From: Acidobacteriota bacterium
GTDB lineage: Bacteria; Acidobacteriota; Vicinamibacteria; Vicinamibacterales; UBA2999
Reading direction: 5' to 3'
Assembly (NCBI GenBank): GCA_003222635.1
Contig: QHWQ01000010.1
Coordinates: 3,334 to 67,333 of the forward strand
Length of the DNA stretch: 64,000 nt
Made by a program: the position numbers and the translations under genes. Of the stretch, positions 25,871 to 57,332 are shown in pieces (positions within the stretch are counted from its first letter, which is position 1; each line of letters begins with the position of its first letter). Under the pieces are notes generated by a model. The model was not told the DNA's origin. It did no database searches and saw nothing but the letters and a program-made list of their open reading frames with translations.

Positions 25871-26028
25871 CAGTTCACGCTTCCGCGCTTCTCTGTTCTT
25901 CGTTCGTGTTCATGTTCTGGTTCGATTCCGGCGTTCGCGCAGCGAAGGCCGAACGCGGCACACTGAACGGCGAACCGAACATGAACCTGAACACGAACCG
26001 GGAAGCGAGAACATGGAAGTGTGAACCG
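25871..26028. repeat. 158-bp long imperfect inverted repeat, gene-less copy of the element at 32581-33314
   Basis: The ends are CAGTTCACGCTTCCGC...GGAAGTGTGAACCG. The arms are built from GTTC-rich units (GTTCGTGTTCATGTTCTGGTTCG / CGAACCGAACATGAACCTGAACACGAAC). The repeat fills the EIIA-rapZ spacer. Confidence 0.8.
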
Positions 26029-26032
26029 CATA

Positions 26033-30406: not shown

Positions 30407-32566
30407 TCAGCGCGGGCGAGCGGGCGGGGCGGGCGTTGTCGAGCGTCCAGGCGCGGCCGTCGAGCGCGCGGGTGCGGCGGTCGTGCACGCGGGGCTGACG
30501 CCGCTGCGCGTCTGCGTGCGCTGTTCCTCGTTGCCGTCGACGATGATCCTGTCGGTCGATTTGAAGAAGGTCAGGGTCCGTCCGGTTGTCTCCCGGCACT
30601 TTTCGATCACTTTCACCGACTTGATGCCGGCGCCGGACATCACGTAACGCTCGTCGTCCGCGAAGTAGGTGAGGCGTTCGCCGGAGGCGTTGCGCGTGTC
30701 GAGCTTCAGGCTCACGCTGGTGTACGCCTCGAGGCGGTCGATGTGGCCGCCCTGCGGCGCAAGCAGGACTTCGATGCGATCCGCGCGAAGGTCGCCCTGC
30801 GGCCCGCTCAACTGCGCTTGCGCGGCGACGATGCCGGCGGCATTCTTCATCGAGTTGTACGTGATGGTGTGCGCGGCGTCCGCGTACCGGATTTCGGCGC
30901 CGTGCGCGATCGAGTTGCCGGTGTCGAGGACGATCGTCGATCGCGCGTTGCCCGATGCGAGGAAGTCGCCCTTGCTTTGATCGATGGCGATCGAGTCCGC
31001 GCGCACCGCGGTCTCGCCCTGCCACATCGTCGCGTTGCCGGTATAAATCGCCTGGCCCGCGGCGCCCTGGTAATCGAGCGCATCGGCATTGACGTTGGCC
31101 GGCTGGTCCTGTTTCATCAGGCCCGGCAGCTTCGTCGCATCCTTGCCTGCGGCCTTGTTGGCCTGCAGCATCGTCTTGACGCCGCCGCTCGCCTTCATCA
31201 CGCGCGGGTCGAGCGTGACGTCGATCGTCAGCGCGTCGATGGTGACCTGATCGTCCGCCACGCGCGGCGGTGCGCCGGCCTCGACGCCGGTGAGCCGCAG
31301 CGATCCCTTCGTCGGGTCGTAGCGCGCTTCGCCTGATGCCGCCTGCAGGCCCTGTTCCTCGAACTTCACGGCGCCGCCGAAGACGGCGTTGCTGATCGCA
31401 TCGTTCATCAGCGCGACGGTCAACGTCTTCGACCGCGCGGTGCGAGCGGGCGTCGATTTGCCGCTCTCTTCGCGGTACTCGACGTTGTCCGTGAATTTGG
31501 CGGCGGTCAATCCCCCTCCAGGCGCGCCGTCGGCATCGATTGCGCGAGCCTTGATGCTGCGCGCTGGCGAATCGGGCGAGCCGGGAAGATCGAGGCGCAC
31601 GTTGTCGCGGCCGACGACCTTTGTGACGGAGCCGTCCGGCGCCAGCCTGATGTCGAGGGTGTCCCCGAGAAACTGCCGGCCCTTCGAACCGTTGTGGCCC
31701 GTCATCGCGATGGCGGCGCCGCCAATCAGCTGCGCATGTTCCAGCGCGCGCTCGCCTTCGGCCGCGTAGTTCAGGTTCATGTCGCGCGCGCTCATCGAGT
31801 CGACACCCGAGCCGCCGCCGACCACACGCGAGTCGCCGCGCAGCTCCATATTCGTGATGTGCTGCTCGCTCTCGGTGAGGTGCGCGACGCCCTGCCTGGC
31901 GTCGATCACCTGCTCGCCGCGCAGCGCATGGACGTTCCCGTCGAGCGTCAGCGTGTGCGCCATCCGATCGAGCGTGGATTTGCCCGACGTGAACTCCATC
32001 GTCGTGTTGCCGTGCTCGTCGCGCAGCGAAACGCGCGACTGGTCAGCCAGCGACAGGACGTCGGCGTTCTTGTCGTACGACATGCCGGTGCCGGAGCCCA
32101 TCATCCGCTCGCGCTGGAACGTGACGGCGCCCGGCGCGATCATCAGTCCGGTATCCTGATTGAAGCTCGCGGTATCCGCCCTGACGATGAAGCCGTCGTC
32201 GGAGGTGAGCTGAACGCCGCCGGTGAGCTGAAGGTCCTTCTGCCGCTCGCCCGCCTGCGCCTCGCGTCCCGTCACGACGTAATCGCGCCCGCCGCGATTG
32301 CGGACCGTGATCTTGACGCCAACCAGCTTGGTCAGCCCGCCTTCGTAGGTGAGCTGCCGCTCCGCTTCGATCAGGTAATCCTGCTTGGTGCCACGAACCT
32401 GCTGGACGACATTGCCGGAGCTCTCGATGAGGGCTTTCGGATCAATGCGCGCCGGTGCGGTGGCGGGAACAGGCTTGGCGCGCTCCCCCATCGTCGCGTA
32501 GACGACGACGGCCGCAGCGATGCCGATCGCTGCCACCAGAAAGCGGGCCCATTTCTGCCACTTCAT
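30407..32566 (-). CDS. membrane-anchored LptC-like protein fused to multiple OstA/LptA-like repeats
   Basis: N-terminal TM anchor (WARFLVAAIGIAAAVVVYA), then repeated beta-jellyroll-type strings such as ADALDYQGAAGQAIYTGNATMWQGETAVRADSIAIDQSKGDFLASGNA and LRADRIEVLL...LEAYTSVSL. The gene occupies the position of lptC-lptA upstream of lptB. Length 719 aa. Confidence 0.75.
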   Translation of the reverse strand: MKWQKWARFLVAAIGIAAAVVVYATMGERAKPVPATAPARIDPKALIESSGNVVQQVRGTKQDYLIEAERQLTYEGGLTKLVGVKITVRNRGGRDYVVTGREAQAGERQKDLQLTGGVQLTSDDGFIVRADTASFNQDTGLMIAPGAVTFQRERMMGSGTGMSYDKNADVLSLADQSRVSLRDEHGNTTMEFTSGKSTLDRMAHTLTLDGNVHALRGEQVIDARQGVAHLTESEQHITNMELRGDSRVVGGGSGVDSMSARDMNLNYAAEGERALEHAQLIGGAAIAMTGHNGSKGRQFLGDTLDIRLAPDGSVTKVVGRDNVRLDLPGSPDSPARSIKARAIDADGAPGGGLTAAKFTDNVEYREESGKSTPARTARSKTLTVALMNDAISNAVFGGAVKFEEQGLQAASGEARYDPTKGSLRLTGVEAGAPPRVADDQVTIDALTIDVTLDPRVMKASGGVKTMLQANKAAGKDATKLPGLMKQDQPANVNADALDYQGAAGQAIYTGNATMWQGETAVRADSIAIDQSKGDFLASGNARSTIVLDTGNSIAHGAEIRYADAAHTITYNSMKNAAGIVAAQAQLSGPQGDLRADRIEVLLAPQGGHIDRLEAYTSVSLKLDTRNASGERLTYFADDERYVMSGAGIKSVKVIEKCRETTGRTLTFFKSTDRIIVDGNEEQRTQTRSGVSPACTTAAPARSTAAPGRSTTPAPPARPR

Positions 32567-32580
32567 TCGATTAAGGATAA

Positions 32581-33314
32581 CAGTTCATCCTTCCGCTTCC
32601 CGGTTCCCAGTTCGTGTTCAGGTGCTGGTTCAGTTCGGTATTCCGCGTTTGAGGTTAGTTGTTCGACGCTGCAGGTTCTACGTTCTTTATCGGCGTCTAG
32701 GCGCGAGGAATTTGCAGTTCCCGGAGCGAGACGTGTCGATTTCGGCGGAAATCTGGCGGGCATGTCGCGTGCTCATCGACGTCGCATGGGAAAAGGGGTT
32801 CAACGATTCGAGGACCTACGAGCATGGCAGGCGTGCGATGCCTTCAAGAGAGCGGTCTATGACTTGTGTGAGCAGAAGCCGATCGCGCGCGATTTTGGGC
32901 GGCGGAAGCAAATCGAGGAGTCATCTTCGCGAACCACCGCGCACATTGCCGAAGGCTTCGGCCGCTTCTATCCCGCCGATTTCGCGCGGTTCTGCGTGAT
33001 CGCGCGGTCCTCGTTGATGGAATCGCAGAATCATCTGATCGACTTCGTCCACAAGAAATACATCACCGAGGATCGCAGACAGGAACTGAATCAGCTCGTC
33101 GTTACTGCGTTGGAAGAAGTGACCGGGCTGATTGAATACCTGCAATCGCCGGAAGCGCTCCGCAACGCACGCCGCGCACGTGAGCGACGAGTAGTATCGC
33201 GCGCCGAACGACAGGAACAGAGAACCGCCCGAACCAAGAAGAACAAGAACCAGAACGATGAACCGAACGTGAACCTGAACCCGAACGGTGAACGGTGAAG
33301 CGGAAGGGTGAACG
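32581..33314. mobile_element. long inverted-repeat element carrying a four-helix-bundle gene (IVS-like cassette)
   Basis: The left end reads CAGTTCATCCTTCCGCTTCCCGGTTCCCAGTTCGTGTTCAGG.... The right end reads ...GAACCTGAACCCGAACGGTGAACGGTGAAGCGGAAGGGTGAACG and is the reverse complement of the left. The same termini occur on the 158-bp repeat at 25871. The element fills the lptC/A-recJ spacer. Mobility is inferred, not shown. Confidence 0.6.
32786..33298 (+). CDS. four-helix-bundle protein (23S rRNA intervening-sequence protein family)
   Basis: The protein reads MGKGVQRFEDLRAWQACDAFKRAVYDL...SSSRTTAHIAEGFGRFYPADFARFCVIARSSLMESQNHL. Its C-terminal tail (..KKNKNQNDEPNVNLNPNGER) is encoded by the right repeat arm. 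The track ORF 31694..33298 is over-extended. Confidence 0.8.
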   Translation: MGKGVQRFEDLRAWQACDAFKRAVYDLCEQKPIARDFGRRKQIEESSSRTTAHIAEGFGRFYPADFARFCVIARSSLMESQNHLIDFVHKKYITEDRRQELNQLVVTALEEVTGLIEYLQSPEALRNARRARERRVVSRAERQEQRTARTKKNKNQNDEPNVNLNPNGER

Positions 33315-33319
33315 ACCGC

Positions 33320-35041
33320 TTAGCTGTCCGGAGCCCGGAAATCAGCGACAGAGAGCTGCAGGTAGCGCTCTCCATTGTAGGTGTCGTTTTCGAGCGAAAA
33401 GGCGAGGTCGATGGCGCCCTTGTGCTCGGCGACGAAGCTCTCGCGTTCCGACGCGCGCCAGGCGACGCCGCGCAGGATGCGGCCGTCCTGCTTGAACGCC
33501 ATCTTCAGATGCCGGTCCTTCAGGCGGCGGGGACCGTCGACGATCTCCACGCGGCTCGTACGGAAGATGGGGCACGGGTTGCCGGCGCCAAACGGAGCGA
33601 GCGCCGAGAGCTCCGACACGACCTGCTCGTTGATCGACCGGAACGTGAGCGAGCCGTCGATCCAGAGGCGCGGACGCAGGTCGTCGGGCGTGAGGCAGCG
33701 GTCCGCGAAGTCGTTGACGCGCGCGCGCAGCTCGCGAATCTTCGCGGCGTCGATCGTCAGCCCCGCCGCCTGCTTGTGGCCGCCGAACTTCGACATGGCG
33801 TCGGCGGACGATTCGAGCGCCGCCAGCATGTTGAACGACGGAATGCTGCGGCAGGATCCATGCGCGACGTCGCCGTCGACCGAGATGACGATCGCCGGCC
33901 GATGGAACGCGTCCACCAGCTTCGAGGCGACGATGCCGATGACGCCCCGGTGCCAGCCGTCGCCGGCGACGACGATGACGGTGCGCGAGCCGACCTCGAG
34001 ATCCGTCTCGACGATCTTCTTCGCCTGACTGACGATCTCCGCCTCTTCCTGCTGCCGCCGGAGGTTCTCGGAGTTGAGCTGCTCGGCGAGCGCCCGCGCC
34101 TCCTCCCCCATCGTCTCGTCGGAGGCGAGCAGCAGCCGCGCCGCAATGTCCGGCGTGCTCATGCGGCCGGCGGCGTTGACGCGCGGCGCGACGACGAAGC
34201 CGATGTGATAGCTGTCGATCTCGCGGCCGGTGAGGCCGCAGACGTCGAGCAGCGCGCGCAGGCCGATCTTGTGCGGCCCCTTCGACAGCATGCCGAGACC
34301 CAGCTTCGCGATGATGCGGTTCTCGCCGGTCAACGGAACGACGTCGGCGAGCGTGCCAATCGCGGCGACCTTCACGAACGCCGGCAGCCAGTGCGCGTGC
34401 CCGGTGCAATCGCAGAGTGCCTGCACCAGCTTCAGCGCCACGCCGACGCCCGCGAGGTTCTTGTCCGGATACAGGCAGTCGTGACGCTTCGGGTTGATCA
34501 CCGCCAGCGCGTCGGGCAGCTCCGCGCCGGGCTCGTGATGGTCCGTGATGATCAGATCTATCCCGAGCTCGCGGGCGCGATTGGCCGCTTCCGCGGCGCG
34601 AATGCCGCAGTCGACGGAAATGACCACGCGCGCCCCATCCTGGTGGAGACGATCGAGCGTGGCCGGCTGCAGGCCGTAGCCGTCGCGGAAGCGCTCGGGG
34701 AGGAAGTGCACGACGTCGGCGCCGAGCAGCTCCAGCGCGCGGCGCAGGATCACCGTTGACGTCACGCCATCGACGTCGTAGTCGCCGTGAATGGCGATGC
34801 GATCCTTCGACGCAATCGCCGCGAGAATCCGATTGACCGCCGTCGACATGCCCGCCAGACGCAGCGGATCGTGAAGGTCGTCGAGCCGCGGCGACAGGAA
34901 GCGCCGCGCATCGTCCAGATTGCCGAGACCGCGGATGCAGAGCAGCCGCGCCGTCACCGGCGACACGCCGAGCTCGCGCGCGAGCACCTCACTGGGCCCC
35001 TCGTCGCACGCGACGTTCTCCCAGATCAGATCAGCCTTCAT
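33320..35041 (-). CDS. recJ: single-stranded-DNA-specific exonuclease RecJ
   Basis: From ATG 35041 the protein reads MKADLIW.... DHH motifs are present (IAIHGDYDVDGVTS, ISVDCG, LIITDHH), along with DHHA1 (GGHKQAAG). The start overlaps the accA stop (ATGA). Confidence 0.92.
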   Translation of the reverse strand: MKADLIWENVACDEGPSEVLARELGVSPVTARLLCIRGLGNLDDARRFLSPRLDDLHDPLRLAGMSTAVNRILAAIASKDRIAIHGDYDVDGVTSTVILRRALELLGADVVHFLPERFRDGYGLQPATLDRLHQDGARVVISVDCGIRAAEAANRARELGIDLIITDHHEPGAELPDALAVINPKRHDCLYPDKNLAGVGVALKLVQALCDCTGHAHWLPAFVKVAAIGTLADVVPLTGENRIIAKLGLGMLSKGPHKIGLRALLDVCGLTGREIDSYHIGFVVAPRVNAAGRMSTPDIAARLLLASDETMGEEARALAEQLNSENLRRQQEEAEIVSQAKKIVETDLEVGSRTVIVVAGDGWHRGVIGIVASKLVDAFHRPAIVISVDGDVAHGSCRSIPSFNMLAALESSADAMSKFGGHKQAAGLTIDAAKIRELRARVNDFADRCLTPDDLRPRLWIDGSLTFRSINEQVVSELSALAPFGAGNPCPIFRTSRVEIVDGPRRLKDRHLKMAFKQDGRILRGVAWRASERESFVAEHKGAIDLAFSLENDTYNGERYLQLSVADFRAPDS

Positions 35042-54338: not shown

Positions 54339-57332
54339 ATGAACGCGCGGCGTTGGTTCGTGTGTGCGGCGACGGTGGCATCGCTGGTTCTTCCGGCTCT
54401 TTCCTACGGCCAGACCTCACAGAGCGCGCTGGCCGGTGTCGTCAAGGACACGACCGGTGCAGTCCTGCCCGGCGTGACCGTGGAAGCGGCAAGCCCTGCC
54501 CTCATCGAGCGCGTGCGCTCGGTCACCACCGATTCCTCCGGTCTGTATCGCATCGTCGATCTCCGGCCGGGCACCTACACGATCACGTTCACGCTTCCCG
54601 GCTTCAACACCGTCAAGGTCGAGAGCTTCGACCTGCGCGCCGACTTCGTCGCAACCGTCAACGCGGACATGAAGGTCGGCGAGCTGAACGAAACGATTAC
54701 CGTGACCGGTGAAGCGCCGCTCGTCGACGTGCAGAGCACGACGCGCGCCGCCGTCTACAACAAGGAGGTGATCGAGAGCCTGCCGAACAACCGGCAGATT
54801 CAGAGCCTCGCGCAGACGATCCCCGGCGTCATCGGCGGTCAGAACATCGACGGCCCTGCGTCGCGCAGCCTCTCGGTGCACGGCAGCCGCATCGCGGAAA
54901 CCAATAGCGCGATCGACGGCATGTCGGATCGCCGTGGAGCGGCGGGTGGCCAGGCCGTCACCTTCTACATGAACGAAGGCAGCGTGCAGGAGGTCAGCGT
55001 CCGCACGGATGGCGGCGACGCCGAGGCGCAGTACTCGGGCGTCTGGATGAACGCGATTCCCAAGGAAGGCGGCAACTCGTTCAACTGGAACATCACCGCG
55101 CTCTGGGCGAACAAGGATCTCTCCGCCAGCAACCTGTCGCAGGCCTACATCAATCAGGGGCTGACGGCGGTGAACGGCCTGAAGCGCACGTGGGATTTCA
55201 ATCCCAACGGCGGCGGCCCGCTCATCAAGGACAAGCTGTGGTTCTACGCCGCCTACCGCAACAACGAGATCGACAAGTACGTCGCCGACGCGTTCTACAA
55301 CACGAACCCGGCGGCGTGGCTGTATGTGCCCGACAAGGCGCGGCAGGCGGCCGACACGCAGATTCACCGCAACTACGCCGGGCGCCTGACGTGGCAGGCG
55401 ACGCCGCGCAACAAGTTCAACTTCAGCTACGAGAAGGATCGGCGTATCACCCCGCTCCGCCGCATCGCGTCCACCGTCTCGCCTGAAGCGACGACCTATA
55501 CGCCGTTCTATCCGAACGCGATCTCCACCATCGTGTGGCGCGTCCCGTACAACAGCAAGCTGCTCTTCGACACCGGCTTCATGTCGTACGTCCAGGACTG
55601 GGACGAGCGCCGGCAGATCAACCCGAAGGTCGGCTTCGACATGATCTCGGTGACGGAAGATTCGACCGGCCAGATCTACCGTGCGTCCACGGTCTACGGC
55701 CACAACTTCGACAACCCGGTCACGCTGCGTTCGTCGGCGGCCTACGTCACCGGCACGCACAGCTACAAGGTCGGGTTCATGCTGCGCGTGCGCGGCAACG
55801 GGCCGACCTACAACAACATCGACGTCAACGGGAACATGAACTACAACTTCCTGAACGGCGTCCCGCGCCGCATCACGCTGTATGCGACGCCCATCGCGCA
55901 GCGCAACGACGTGAAGGCCGACACCGGCATCTTCGCGCAGGATTCGTGGCCGATGAACCGGATGACGATCAACTACGGCATCCGCTACGACTACCTGCAC
56001 GTGCGTGTCCCCGCGCAGCATCTCGACGCCGGCCAGTTCGTCCCCGAGCGCAATTTCGCGCCGGTCGAGAACGCGCCGAAGTGGAACGACATCAACCCGC
56101 GCGTCGGCGTCTCGTATGACCTGTTCGGCACGGGCCGGACCGTCGCGAAGTTCACCGTCGGCCGCTACATCTCCGGCGGCAGCCTGGCGACCAACGTCAA
56201 CCCGGTGAACGCGTCGGTCAACAACGCCACGCGCACCTGGACCGACAGCAACGGCAACTACGCGCCGGACTGCGATTTCAGCAACTCCGCGACCAACGGC
56301 GAGTGCGGTCCGCTGTCGAACCTGAATTTCGGCAAGGTCAATCCGACCGCGACGCAGTTCGACAAGGAAGTGCTCGAGGGGTGGGGGGTGCGGCCGTACA
56401 ACTGGAGCGTCAGCGCGGGCGTGCAGCGCCAGATCGCCAGCGGCGCATCGATCGACGTCGCGTACTACCGCCGCTGGTACGGCAACTTCACCGTCGTCGA
56501 CAACCAGGCGGTGACGCCGGCCGACTACGATCAGTTCTGCGTCACCGCGCCTGGCAACGACTCGCGCCTCCCGGTTGCGGGACAGCAGATCTGCGGCTTC
56601 TACGACGTGAAGCCATCCAAGGTCGGACAGTCGCAGAACCTCGTGCGGCTGGCGAAGCACTACGGCGATCAGTCGGAGGTGTACAACGGCCTCGACTACT
56701 CGGTGAACTGGCGGCACCGCGGCCTGACGCTCTTCGCCGGCGCGACCACGGGCCGCACGGTCACGAGCCAGTGCTTCACGGTCGATGCGCCCGTGATCTA
56801 CCCGACGATCGTGGCGCCTGCACTGCCAACGGCGACGACGCCGATGGATCCGATGTCGAGCTGCAAGTCCGTCCCGCCGCTGCTCACGCAGTACAAAGGC
56901 TACGGCGTGTATCAGATGCCGTATGGCTTCAGCGTCAGCGGCACGTTCCAGGCGGTTCCGCAGCCGCAGAGCGGCGGTCAGTATCAGTCGATCACCGCGG
57001 ACTACGTGGCGACCAACGCCGAAATCCGGCCGACGCTCGGCCGCGATCTCTCCTCGGGCGCCAACGGGACGGTGACGGTGGATCTGCTGAAGCCGTTCGC
57101 GATGGTCGGCGGCCACAGCAAGCAGCTCGACATGCGCGTCGGCAAGGAGCTCTTCTCGGCAGGCAAAAAGCGCGTGCGTCTGTCGATGGATATCTATAAC
57201 GTGTTTAATTCGAGCGACTGGCAGACGCTCACGACCCGGCTCAGCAACAACGCCGCCGCGAACCGCTGGCAGCGGCCGACGCTGATCCTGCAGGCGCGAT
57301 ATCTCCAGATCGGGACGCAGATCGACTTTTAG
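54339..57332 (+). CDS. TonB-dependent receptor with N-terminal carboxypeptidase-regulatory-like domain
   Basis: From ATG 54339 (GAGG RBS) comes a signal peptide, then GVVKDTTGAVLPGVTVEA...SGLYRIVDLRPGTYTITFTLPGFNT (CarboxypepD_reg). A plug-like region (ITVTGEAPLVDV) and a long beta-barrel follow, ending ...ILQARYLQIGTQIDF, with a C-terminal aromatic residue. Confidence 0.88.
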   Translation: MNARRWFVCAATVASLVLPALSYGQTSQSALAGVVKDTTGAVLPGVTVEAASPALIERVRSVTTDSSGLYRIVDLRPGTYTITFTLPGFNTVKVESFDLRADFVATVNADMKVGELNETITVTGEAPLVDVQSTTRAAVYNKEVIESLPNNRQIQSLAQTIPGVIGGQNIDGPASRSLSVHGSRIAETNSAIDGMSDRRGAAGGQAVTFYMNEGSVQEVSVRTDGGDAEAQYSGVWMNAIPKEGGNSFNWNITALWANKDLSASNLSQAYINQGLTAVNGLKRTWDFNPNGGGPLIKDKLWFYAAYRNNEIDKYVADAFYNTNPAAWLYVPDKARQAADTQIHRNYAGRLTWQATPRNKFNFSYEKDRRITPLRRIASTVSPEATTYTPFYPNAISTIVWRVPYNSKLLFDTGFMSYVQDWDERRQINPKVGFDMISVTEDSTGQIYRASTVYGHNFDNPVTLRSSAAYVTGTHSYKVGFMLRVRGNGPTYNNIDVNGNMNYNFLNGVPRRITLYATPIAQRNDVKADTGIFAQDSWPMNRMTINYGIRYDYLHVRVPAQHLDAGQFVPERNFAPVENAPKWNDINPRVGVSYDLFGTGRTVAKFTVGRYISGGSLATNVNPVNASVNNATRTWTDSNGNYAPDCDFSNSATNGECGPLSNLNFGKVNPTATQFDKEVLEGWGVRPYNWSVSAGVQRQIASGASIDVAYYRRWYGNFTVVDNQAVTPADYDQFCVTAPGNDSRLPVAGQQICGFYDVKPSKVGQSQNLVRLAKHYGDQSEVYNGLDYSVNWRHRGLTLFAGATTGRTVTSQCFTVDAPVIYPTIVAPALPTATTPMDPMSSCKSVPPLLTQYKGYGVYQMPYGFSVSGTFQAVPQPQSGGQYQSITADYVATNAEIRPTLGRDLSSGANGTVTVDLLKPFAMVGGHSKQLDMRVGKELFSAGKKRVRLSMDIYNVFNSSDWQTLTTRLSNNAAANRWQRPTLILQARYLQIGTQIDF

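Follow-up and report, generated by a model that had tools for sequence, protein, structure and literature searches.

A probable intervening-sequence-type hairpin cassette with a four-helix-bundle gene between lptC and recJ in Vicinamibacterales

Why does a four-helix-bundle (4HB) gene of the type carried by intervening sequences (IVSs) of 23S rRNA occupy a spacer between two protein-coding genes? We pursued this question in a stretch of 64,000 nt (the window) of contig QHWQ01000010.1, assembly GCA_003222635.1, from an Acidobacteriota bacterium of the order Vicinamibacterales, in which such a gene lies between lptC and recJ. The origin, mobility, and function of rRNA IVSs and of their S23p open reading frames (ORFs) have been an open question since ∼1990 (PMC4990558), and the origin of heptamer repeats is equally unexplained. 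In Coxiella, the 23S IVS bears an ORF preceded by tandem GACAGAT heptamers and is excised by RNase III at a 28-bp terminal stem; this ORF is in decay and probably not translated. The same paper calls it unclear where IVSs come from and what they do, and it cites older views of them as remnants of transposition or as mobile elements that move with the help of their ORF (PMC4990558). Our analysis leads us to conclude, with a probability of about 0.6, that the lptC-recJ locus is a self-contained hairpin cassette of the IVS type, living outside rRNA in an intergenic spacer; its processing by RNase III, its dependence on sigma-54, and the function of its protein are parts of this reading that we infer.

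The cassette spans positions 32583 to 33313 (plus strand, 731 bp), and its termini, GTTCATCCTTC and GAAGGGTGAAC, match the consensus of the family described below. The left arm (32583-32664) is a degenerate array of GTTC-containing units that includes the family core GTTCGTGTTCAGG, and it pairs with the right arm (33226-33313), which is built of GAAC-containing units and overlaps the 3′ end of the ORF; the window copy mixes unit spacings of 6 and 7 nt in a degenerate pattern. A repeat search delimited inverted arms of 54 nt at 32583-32636 and 33260-33313 with an ungapped complementarity of 81%. When positions 32570-33325 were folded as RNA, the two ends were joined by 85 long-range pairs (32571-32687 with 33213-33323), four of them G-U, and the fold energy was −312 kcal/mol compared to −276 ± 8 kcal/mol for dinucleotide shuffles (z = −4.5; none of 20 shuffles equaled it). 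The original prediction, made from the letters of the window, had described a unit of ∼730 bp with long inverted GTTC-rich ends, which agrees with the 731 bp found and with arms that pair over ∼85 bp. It had also said that the unit nearly fills the spacer, with margins of 15 and 5 nt, and this holds: the cassette begins 16 nt from the lptC start codon (ending at 32566) and stops 6 nt short of the recJ stop codon (beginning at 33320). Both lptC and recJ are on the minus strand, and the 4HB gene is antisense to both neighbors.

Only two places in the window are dense in GTTC/GAAC, the cassette and a 160-nt hairpin at 25871-26030, and the terminus motifs are likewise confined to these two elements, save for one left-type match at 54587. 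We rejected the latter as a third element, as it lies inside a long ORF, has no partner, and appears to be a chance match. The best flanking inverted-repeat scores of 88 other ORFs in the window had a median of 20 and a maximum of 43, and we dismissed the high scores at 18.8 to 19.4 kb and 15 to 16.7 kb as short GC-rich matches within coding DNA. An Rfam scan of the window at gathering thresholds matched no family and no rRNA, and no intrinsic terminators were found in 32400-33500. The possibility that a chance inverted repeat in GC-rich DNA happens to surround an unremarkable ORF is negligible: GC-rich windows do occasionally yield inverted matches of 20 to 30 nt, but the folds of the two elements have z scores of −4.5 and −6, the 4HB genes of other phyla score 29 to 69 compared to at most 25 for non-4HB ORFs of the same loci, and, decisively, arms and termini recur in ∼70 homologous elements.

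This recurrence was established with related loci, 7 from genomes and 80 from a scan of metagenomes with aligned relatives, of which 83 had enough flanking sequence; the cassette is thus one of many paralogous copies in Vicinamibacterales. All seven genome loci follow the same plan, and a strong arm pair was present at 66 of the 83 loci, most of the others lying on truncated contigs; the arm pair was absent without that excuse at only ∼5, so that genes without repeats, which the original prediction had set against itself, are rare. Elements are 610 to 940 bp long with the ends 5′-GTTCAC-N-CTTC ... GAAG-N-GTGAAC-3′, and the retention of these termini in ∼70 related elements bears out the earlier view of a discrete unit. 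Copies that share the termini do occur elsewhere, and the arms do pair when folded, so these two conditions named against the original prediction do not refute it. The arms consist of tandem GTTCNNN units over 50 to 190 nt, with 7 as the best period in 123 of 132 homologous arms. At base 7 counted from each terminus (the N of GTTCAC-N-CTTC; 32589 and 33307 in the window), Watson-Crick pairing was seen in a fraction of 0.36 across 53 elements, while the neighboring positions were nearly always paired; there is thus a conserved mismatch near the element ends.

The gene itself (32786-33298, plus strand; ATG at 32786, TGA at 33296-33298) encodes 170 amino acids with a single recognizable domain, PF05635 (E = 1e-19; 71.2 bits, cutoff 33.8), and also matches TIGR02436 (63.4 bits, cutoff 24). 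The GAAC units of the right arm supply the last ∼25 codons, and the earlier claim of a four-helix-bundle gene with an arm-encoded tail stands in both parts. An AlphaFold (AF2) model with a confidence (pLDDT) of 88 shows a four-helix bundle and a long fifth helix followed by a disordered low-complexity tail. The fifth helix (∼residues 121-153) is Arg-rich and conserved and holds the nearly invariant SPEALRNARRARERR. Homologs range from 110 to 233 amino acids and the tail varies in length; because the tail is built from 7-nt units, the frame changes with every unit gained or lost. Many copies take their stop codon from the TGA of the terminal GTGAAC. For the ORF core of 14 copies at the recJ-lptC site, the median dN (nonsynonymous divergence) was 0.14, with dS (synonymous divergence) saturated near 1.7; because the resulting dN/dS is ∼0.09, we conclude that the gene is kept by purifying selection.

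By Foldseek, the solved structures closest to the model were 2gsc (XCC0516; TM score 0.92 on target) and 2rld (BT_0352; 0.81 to 0.86), followed by Avd of the Bordetella phage retroelement (4dwl and 8ub7; 0.80 to 0.83 on target, at a sequence identity of 8 to 11%). Avd has the same fold as the cassette protein and belongs to the same Pfam-level superfamily (PMC10053308), but Avd systems, unlike the cassette, have a reverse transcriptase (RT) and a template/variable repeat nearby. Among the called genes within 8 to 10 kb of the syntenic loci L008 and L009, no RT domain was found, nor was a template/variable repeat found nearby, and the spacer contains the cassette alone; we therefore rejected the idea that the cassette is a component of a diversity-generating retroelement.

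Upstream of the gene is a regulatory region that looks complete within the unit. A sigma-54-type −24/−12 element of the form GG-N10-GC, GGCATGTCGCGTGC (32759-32772, plus strand), ends 13 nt (GC to ATG) before the start codon. In an alignment of sequences upstream of the ATG, GG-N10-GC was invariant; across a count of 90 homologous starts, 74 have it, and positions that the search did not force are conserved among these 74 matches (C in 69, A in 67, and T in 68), giving the consensus (C)GGCA(Y)-N6-(R)TGC(T)C. The established sigma-54 consensus is TGGCAC-N5-TTGC, and the conserved element is predicted to be the signature of a sigma-54 promoter. In 67 of the 74, the gap to the ATG is 12 to 14 nt; its sequence is variable, and no Shine-Dalgarno motif was found in it. 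Because the element sits at this distance, transcription is predicted to start at the ATG or 1 to 3 nt before it, which would yield a leaderless mRNA. Farther upstream are a distal palindromic box, GCAGGTTCTAC (32671-32681, plus strand; −115 from the ATG, one mismatch to GCA-N5-TGC), which is a candidate upstream activator site, and a proximal one, GAGGAATTTGC (32705-32715, plus strand; −81, two mismatches), which is degenerate in the window copy. Of 69 distinct upstream regions, 45 had exact GCA-N5-TGC at −115, at −81, or at both, compared to 0.043 expected per sequence. The two boxes have the consensus GTYGCAGGTTCTGCGT and are spaced by 34 to 35 nt in 10 of 10 sequences that carry both in exact form; two spaced upstream boxes are the usual layout of enhancer-binding-protein sites. 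The rpoN gene is present in the genome neighborhood, and no sigma-70-like promoter was found in 32400-33500.

This arrangement bears on where a stem can form. Since the predicted internal promoter abuts the ATG, the message of the gene itself should carry the right arm and not the left, and the long stem would form only on transcripts that enter from outside. The IVS-like stem of the original prediction would thus stand for read-through host transcripts and fall for the gene's own message.

A bona fide 23S rRNA IVS has the same plan as the cassette. On plasmid AZO_p2 of Azospirillum lipoferum 4B, a tblastn match (L114 1447-1913) falls within a 23S rRNA gene (2529 bits to Rfam LSU), where the IVS interrupts the helix-45 region with the left arm CAGAGGA CGGATGA CAGAGGA CGGAGGA, the 4HB ORF, and then CCGTCCT CTGTCTT CTGTCAT CCGTCTT; the likeness to IVSs proposed in the original prediction is thereby borne out on a real IVS. 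The ATG of this ORF falls within the left arm. IVSs in general (those of Leptospira, Coxiella, the Xanthomonas-type S23p ORFs, and L114) resemble the cassette in having a PF05635 gene whose ORF lies between the inverted repeats of a long stem, in their tandem heptamers (GACAGAT in Coxiella, CAGAGGA/CGGATGA opposite CCGTCCT/CTGTCTT in L114), and in the existence of shorter versions without an ORF. In the window cassette, terminal inverted repeats likewise form a stem around the insert, but an IVS sits inside the 23S rRNA gene, at helix 25 or 45, whereas the cassette is flanked by lptC and recJ. The cassette further differs in arms that are 3 to 6 times longer than the 28-bp Coxiella stem, in its own predicted sigma-54 promoter and leaderless start, in occurring in both orientations relative to host transcription, and in an ORF under purifying selection where that of Coxiella decays.

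We also sampled 4HB loci outside the Acidobacteriota (L010-L018, L100-L110, L113-L117, and L125-L127), drawn from Cyanobacteriota, Bacteroidota, Gemmatimonadota, Alpha- and Gammaproteobacteria, and unassigned IMG/VR contigs. At 26 of 28 full-length loci, several of which are mutually orthologous, the 4HB gene stands between inverted tandem arrays whose short unit is specific to the lineage. The units include AGTCAGG, TAGCTTT, GGTTYAA, AAAAGGG, AGGTGAC, GGGTGTA, GGCNTTC, TAGGGAG, GGGGCTT, GCAGAAG, and GGGAATC. All nine plasmid-borne genes are bracketed (Nostoc, Aulosira, Calothrix, Anabaena, Pseudanabaena, Geminocystis, Picosynechococcus, and Riemerella), as are all 11 full-length genes on IMG/VR contigs (GC content, 0.42 to 0.71), where 7 was the best period in 22 of 22 arms, and the plan is also found in Stanieria, Leptolyngbya, Gemmatirosa, Xanthomonas, and Stenotrophomonas, with a unit of 8 nt in Leptolyngbya and Gemmatirosa. 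The exceptions are Nostoc PCC 7120, where an insertion sequence has probably displaced one arm, and Pseudanabaena PCC 7367, which has no arrays; three spurious partial 4HB matches had no arrays either. Scans of viral contigs with single proteins returned 0 to 1 loci, and a cultured-phage collection gave no 4HB match. The arrangement of a 4HB gene between inverted arrays therefore occurs in at least five phyla. In modules of Stanieria (L116 1380-1495) and Nostoc 7120 (L115 1440-1512), we noted a common interior leader with repeated ACTTCAAACTT, and in Stanieria the TAATATAAT that separates the left array from the ORF is a possible internal promoter of the sigma-70 type for this subfamily.

Arms and ORF adjoin each other in these phyla outside the Acidobacteriota, and the module lies inside operons in the operon's orientation (cas6|cas4, cas10|cmr3, and accB|accC), so that the stem would form on the operon transcript. 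In Xanthomonas campestris (L125/L126 1925-2372) and Stenotrophomonas (L127 1985-2423), an XCC0516-type gene stands between accB and accC with GGGAATC-type units upstream and their inverse downstream. Insertions of 4HB modules between cas6 and cas4 of type I-D systems were seen in Pseudanabaena and Anabaena sp. 90, with differing heptamers, and between cas10 and cmr3 in Picosynechococcus (L011 1510-1869, L015 1495-1863, and L017 1492-1848). Two CRISPR surveys list the 4HB family as cas associated; the loci at hand suggest that this association of PF05635 may reflect insertion of a module and not a cas function, and PF05635-CRISPR-cas associations are to be read with that caution.

The pairing of one gene family with short-unit arrays raises the question of whether the 4HB protein binds, spreads, or maintains such hairpins, with gene-less ones as nonautonomous dependants, in a partnership like that of repetitive extragenic palindromic (REP) sequences and their REP-associated tyrosine transposases (RAYTs). 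REP sequences and REPINs (hairpin-forming REP doublets) with RAYTs, and palindromic elements that RNase III processes, such as Correia elements of Neisseria and enterobacterial repetitive intergenic consensus (ERIC) elements, are dispersed intergenic hairpins of 100 to 200 nt without target duplication, and a RAYT gene is flanked by its own repeats. Correia elements have TA duplications and short terminal inverted repeats (TIRs), unlike the cassette. A REPIN-RAYT system proper was rejected, as the cassette encodes no Y1/HUH (RAYT) transposase and PF05635 is its sole domain; what the repeats flank here is a 4HB gene, and the arms are tandem 7-nt units. The looser partnership draws on the 26 bracketed loci with their lineage-specific units of 7 nt (8 nt in two lineages), on gene-less hairpins of the same unit, which in the window, L007, L011, and L113 lie beside the 4HB gene or not far from it, and on the modeled Avd-like fold, which would suit nucleic acid binding, with its Arg-rich helix. 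It draws also on the accB-accC gene of Xanthomonas, whose flanking GGGAATC-type unit is the heptamer of ∼186 dispersed arrays in X. campestris, 70 of them in convergent inverted pairs, with no known role (Rehm et al., PMC4692102). However, no nuclease, recombinase, or polymerase activity is known for any 4HB protein, common descent equally predicts that related proteins share a repeat unit, and cyanobacteria have many heptamer families whose arrays are mostly unpaired (PMC4692102). We consider this partnership unlikely.

From pairs of tblastx flank clusters, in which several flank families are merged so that the count is approximate, we read at least 10 distinct genomic sites, and at four or more of these (A, C, E, and I) the gene is seen facing either way between the same flanking genes. 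The recJ-lptC spacers of further relatives were fetched through LptC homologs. The spacer is filled by the cassette in the window, L009, and others, and by an inverted cassette in L006 and L008; in L119 (1952-2173), the 4HB ORF has a premature TGA (a 73-amino-acid product is called), which makes it a pseudogene copy, and in L121 to L124 the spacers measure 35, 56, 76, and 101 nt and contain no element. L008 and L009 have opposite orientations, with ORFs 86% and flanks 82 to 83% identical. The left junction of L009, ggataacagtcc|GTTCAC, is the reverse complement of the right junction of L008, and the lptC-side junction is identical, which indicates that the two are one resident element that has flipped; arm-arm recombination would be the simplest cause, as inferred from this comparison between genomes. 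Arms compared by gene side and by flank side were too symmetric to discriminate a flip of the whole element from one of its interior. In plastid inverted repeats and the 2-micron plasmid, flip-flop segments invert by recombination between long inverted repeats. The cassette resembles these in having both interior orientations at one site, identical junctions, and near-identical arms, and it differs in that it encodes no site-specific recombinase and that its inversion is deduced from different genomes.

Gene-less relatives of the cassette accompany it. The sibling hairpin (25871-26030; 160 nt, termini CAGTTCACGCTTC ... GAAGTGTGAACCG) lies between rapZ and an EIIA-Man gene, folds into a 58-bp hairpin (z = −6.0), and shares its termini and its core, GTTCGTGTTCA / TGAACACGAAC, with the cassette arms, in line with the earlier identification of a gene-less sibling at 25871. 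The corresponding site in L009 is empty, and rapZ and the EIIA-Man gene overlap there. At the same junction in L008 (17400-17475), there is a 24-nt spacer, AATGACGAACGGGAAGGCTCTCCG; it is similar to the terminus of an arm, perhaps as a remnant or footprint. Further gene-less hairpins were found in L006 (1006-1102), L007 (2202-2384), L050 (3147-3251), and L095 (1810-2035). In the recJ-lptC spacer of L120 (2200-2490), a gene-less hairpin of ∼290 nt has the same junctions as the cassettes (GGCC|GTTCAC ... GTGAAC|TGCTAT) and a left arm that can be aligned to theirs, and it resembles a cassette that has undergone an internal deletion. Two solo arms, a partnerless left-type GTTC array in L003 (1575-1650) and a right-type GAAC array right after guaA in L008 (3340-3420), are possibly decayed elements. 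Outside the Acidobacteriota, the 4HB gene of Gemmatirosa (L113 1340-1500) has a gene-less hairpin of the same GGGCAGGA octamers immediately upstream, so that three arrays in the order left, right, right surround the gene, and Pseudanabaena has a comparable extra hairpin beside its gene (L011 1272-1510).

These observations bear on two further explanations. One is a conventional family of inverted-repeat transposons and MITEs (miniature inverted-repeat transposable elements), with arms that serve as TIRs for a transposase encoded elsewhere, the 4HB gene as cargo, and the 160-nt sibling as a MITE. As in MITEs, the elements have terminal inverted repeats and multiple copies, and their termini are sharply conserved, short gene-less copies exist, many sites are occupied, and insertion is polymorphic. 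Against this, no target-site duplication was found at the window-copy junctions, where the original prediction had seen none, nor in comparisons of filled and empty sites, which are ∼80% identical with breakpoints that are not base exact. Moreover, the arms are 50 to 190 nt of tandem 7-nt units and not short TIRs, the supposed cargo is always the same gene family, across phyla and between unrelated arm sequences, the flanks at the syntenic loci L008 and L009 contain no transposase, and residence at the sites is long. We regard such a family as very unlikely.

The other explanation posits an ordinary, vertically inherited, sigma-54-regulated gene family whose hairpins are bidirectional insulators or terminators, or activator or architectural sites, with no mobile or selfish history. 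Strong purifying selection, long residence at fixed sites, and the complete-looking regulatory region are what one would expect of it. It does not account for a site that in relatives is also empty, occupied by a pseudogene, or gene-less, for gene-less hairpins inserted between genes that overlap elsewhere, for the orientation flips, or for the same architecture in 23S rRNA and in unrelated operons (cas6|cas4, cas10|cmr3, and accB|accC), and we judge it highly improbable. The possible mobility raised in the original prediction, by comparison, accords with the empty sibling site in the close relative L009 and with the empty recJ-lptC spacers in four more distant relatives.

We next consider how the arms stay complementary. 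Over the outer 42 nt of the arms of 53 distinct elements, Watson-Crick pairing was 0.762 within an element compared to 0.700 ± 0.011 with shuffled partners; because the arms pair better within than between elements, they covary inside each element. A shift of register by 7 retained a complementarity of 0.53, and other shifts 0.21 to 0.31. In the same outer 42 nt, G-U oppositions (0.048) were about as frequent as A-C oppositions (0.044). In 10 acidobacterial elements, G-U pairs numbered 32 on the sense and 63 on the antisense strand, and the antisense hairpin was slightly more stable in 8 of the 10; among 24 elements of other phyla, no strand bias of hairpin stability was found (sense more stable in 10). 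It fits better with these data that complementarity is maintained at the DNA level, or that both strands are used, than that one RNA is selected. Here the original prediction calls for a correction: G-U pairs in the arms have no strand bias, and the complementarity looks maintained in the DNA.

Several points weigh against the conclusion that the locus is an IVS-type cassette. The equal G-U and A-C frequencies and the lack of a strand preference do not indicate selection for a stem in one particular RNA. Element-free recJ-lptC spacers occur in the more distant relatives only, where precise loss is indistinguishable from gain. Copies at the same site are far more alike than copies at different sites, with dS saturated, and the elements are old residents that are not actively moving; no mobility enzyme is encoded by the element, and no insertion mechanism can be named. 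The single promoter match in the window alone is not significant (3 matches compared to 1.7 expected), and the weight of the promoter assignment comes from conservation across homologs and not from that match. Finally, the cut by RNase III, the start of transcription, and the dependence on sigma-54 are predicted from sequence. The observation made in the original prediction is confirmed, and its interpretation is essentially right.

Under the IVS-type cassette reading, the element would have inserted into the spacer as DNA, through a mechanism without duplication of the target. Recombination between its long arms could flip the interior, and gene conversion could keep these arms complementary. 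Host read-through from either side would form the ∼85-bp stem, and RNase III might cut it as in rRNA IVSs, which would separate recJ from lptC mRNA and make the insertion tolerable. The 4HB gene would be expressed not by host read-through but from a sigma-54 promoter inside the unit, served by two upstream activator sites, as a leaderless mRNA with the right arm only. Its product, probably a pentameric nucleic acid binder like XCC0516 and Avd with an additional Arg-rich helix, may act on nucleic acid, and the repeat arrays are a possible target. Hairpins without a gene, like that at 25871-26030, would be internal-deletion derivatives.

A broader proposal is that PF05635 4HB proteins and inverted arrays of short, mostly 7-nt units form one widespread class of element, that 23S IVSs with or without an ORF are copies that landed in rRNA, and that the protein is the repeats' specific partner as their binder, maintainer, or spreader. 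We regard this as possible but doubtful; if true, it would explain the origin of heptamer families such as the cyanobacterial short tandemly repeated repetitive (STRR) sequences, the GGGAATC repeats of Xanthomonas, and the GTTCNNN hairpins of Vicinamibacterales. Like the cassette arms, known bacterial heptamer repeats (STRR, GGGAATC, and TAACTGA, the last reported from Beggiatoaceae, Cyanobacteria, and Bacteroidetes [PMC4679880]) are intergenic 7-nt arrays, often in convergent inverted pairs, but the papers on them do not mention 4HB genes, and most reported arrays are unpaired and gene-less (PMC4692102, PMC4679880). A literature search turned up no link between PF05635 genes and inverted arrays of short units at their flanks; most subscription journals fell outside this search, and an earlier description is possible. 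The IVS design is not specific to rRNA, given that the module occurs in intergenic spacers and operons of at least five phyla. Within one clade, the module is multicopy, selected, apparently sigma-54 regulated, and able to invert, and the cassette family provides a large comparative data set for both the IVS and the heptamer questions.

Next to the cassette, the lptC gene of the window (30407-32566) encodes a 719-amino-acid fusion of LptC with an LptA/LptD_N-like part that is conserved in the clade. Near its 3′ end is a 21-nt tandem repeat (30438-30493; 2.7 copies) that encodes an Ala/Pro-rich tail.

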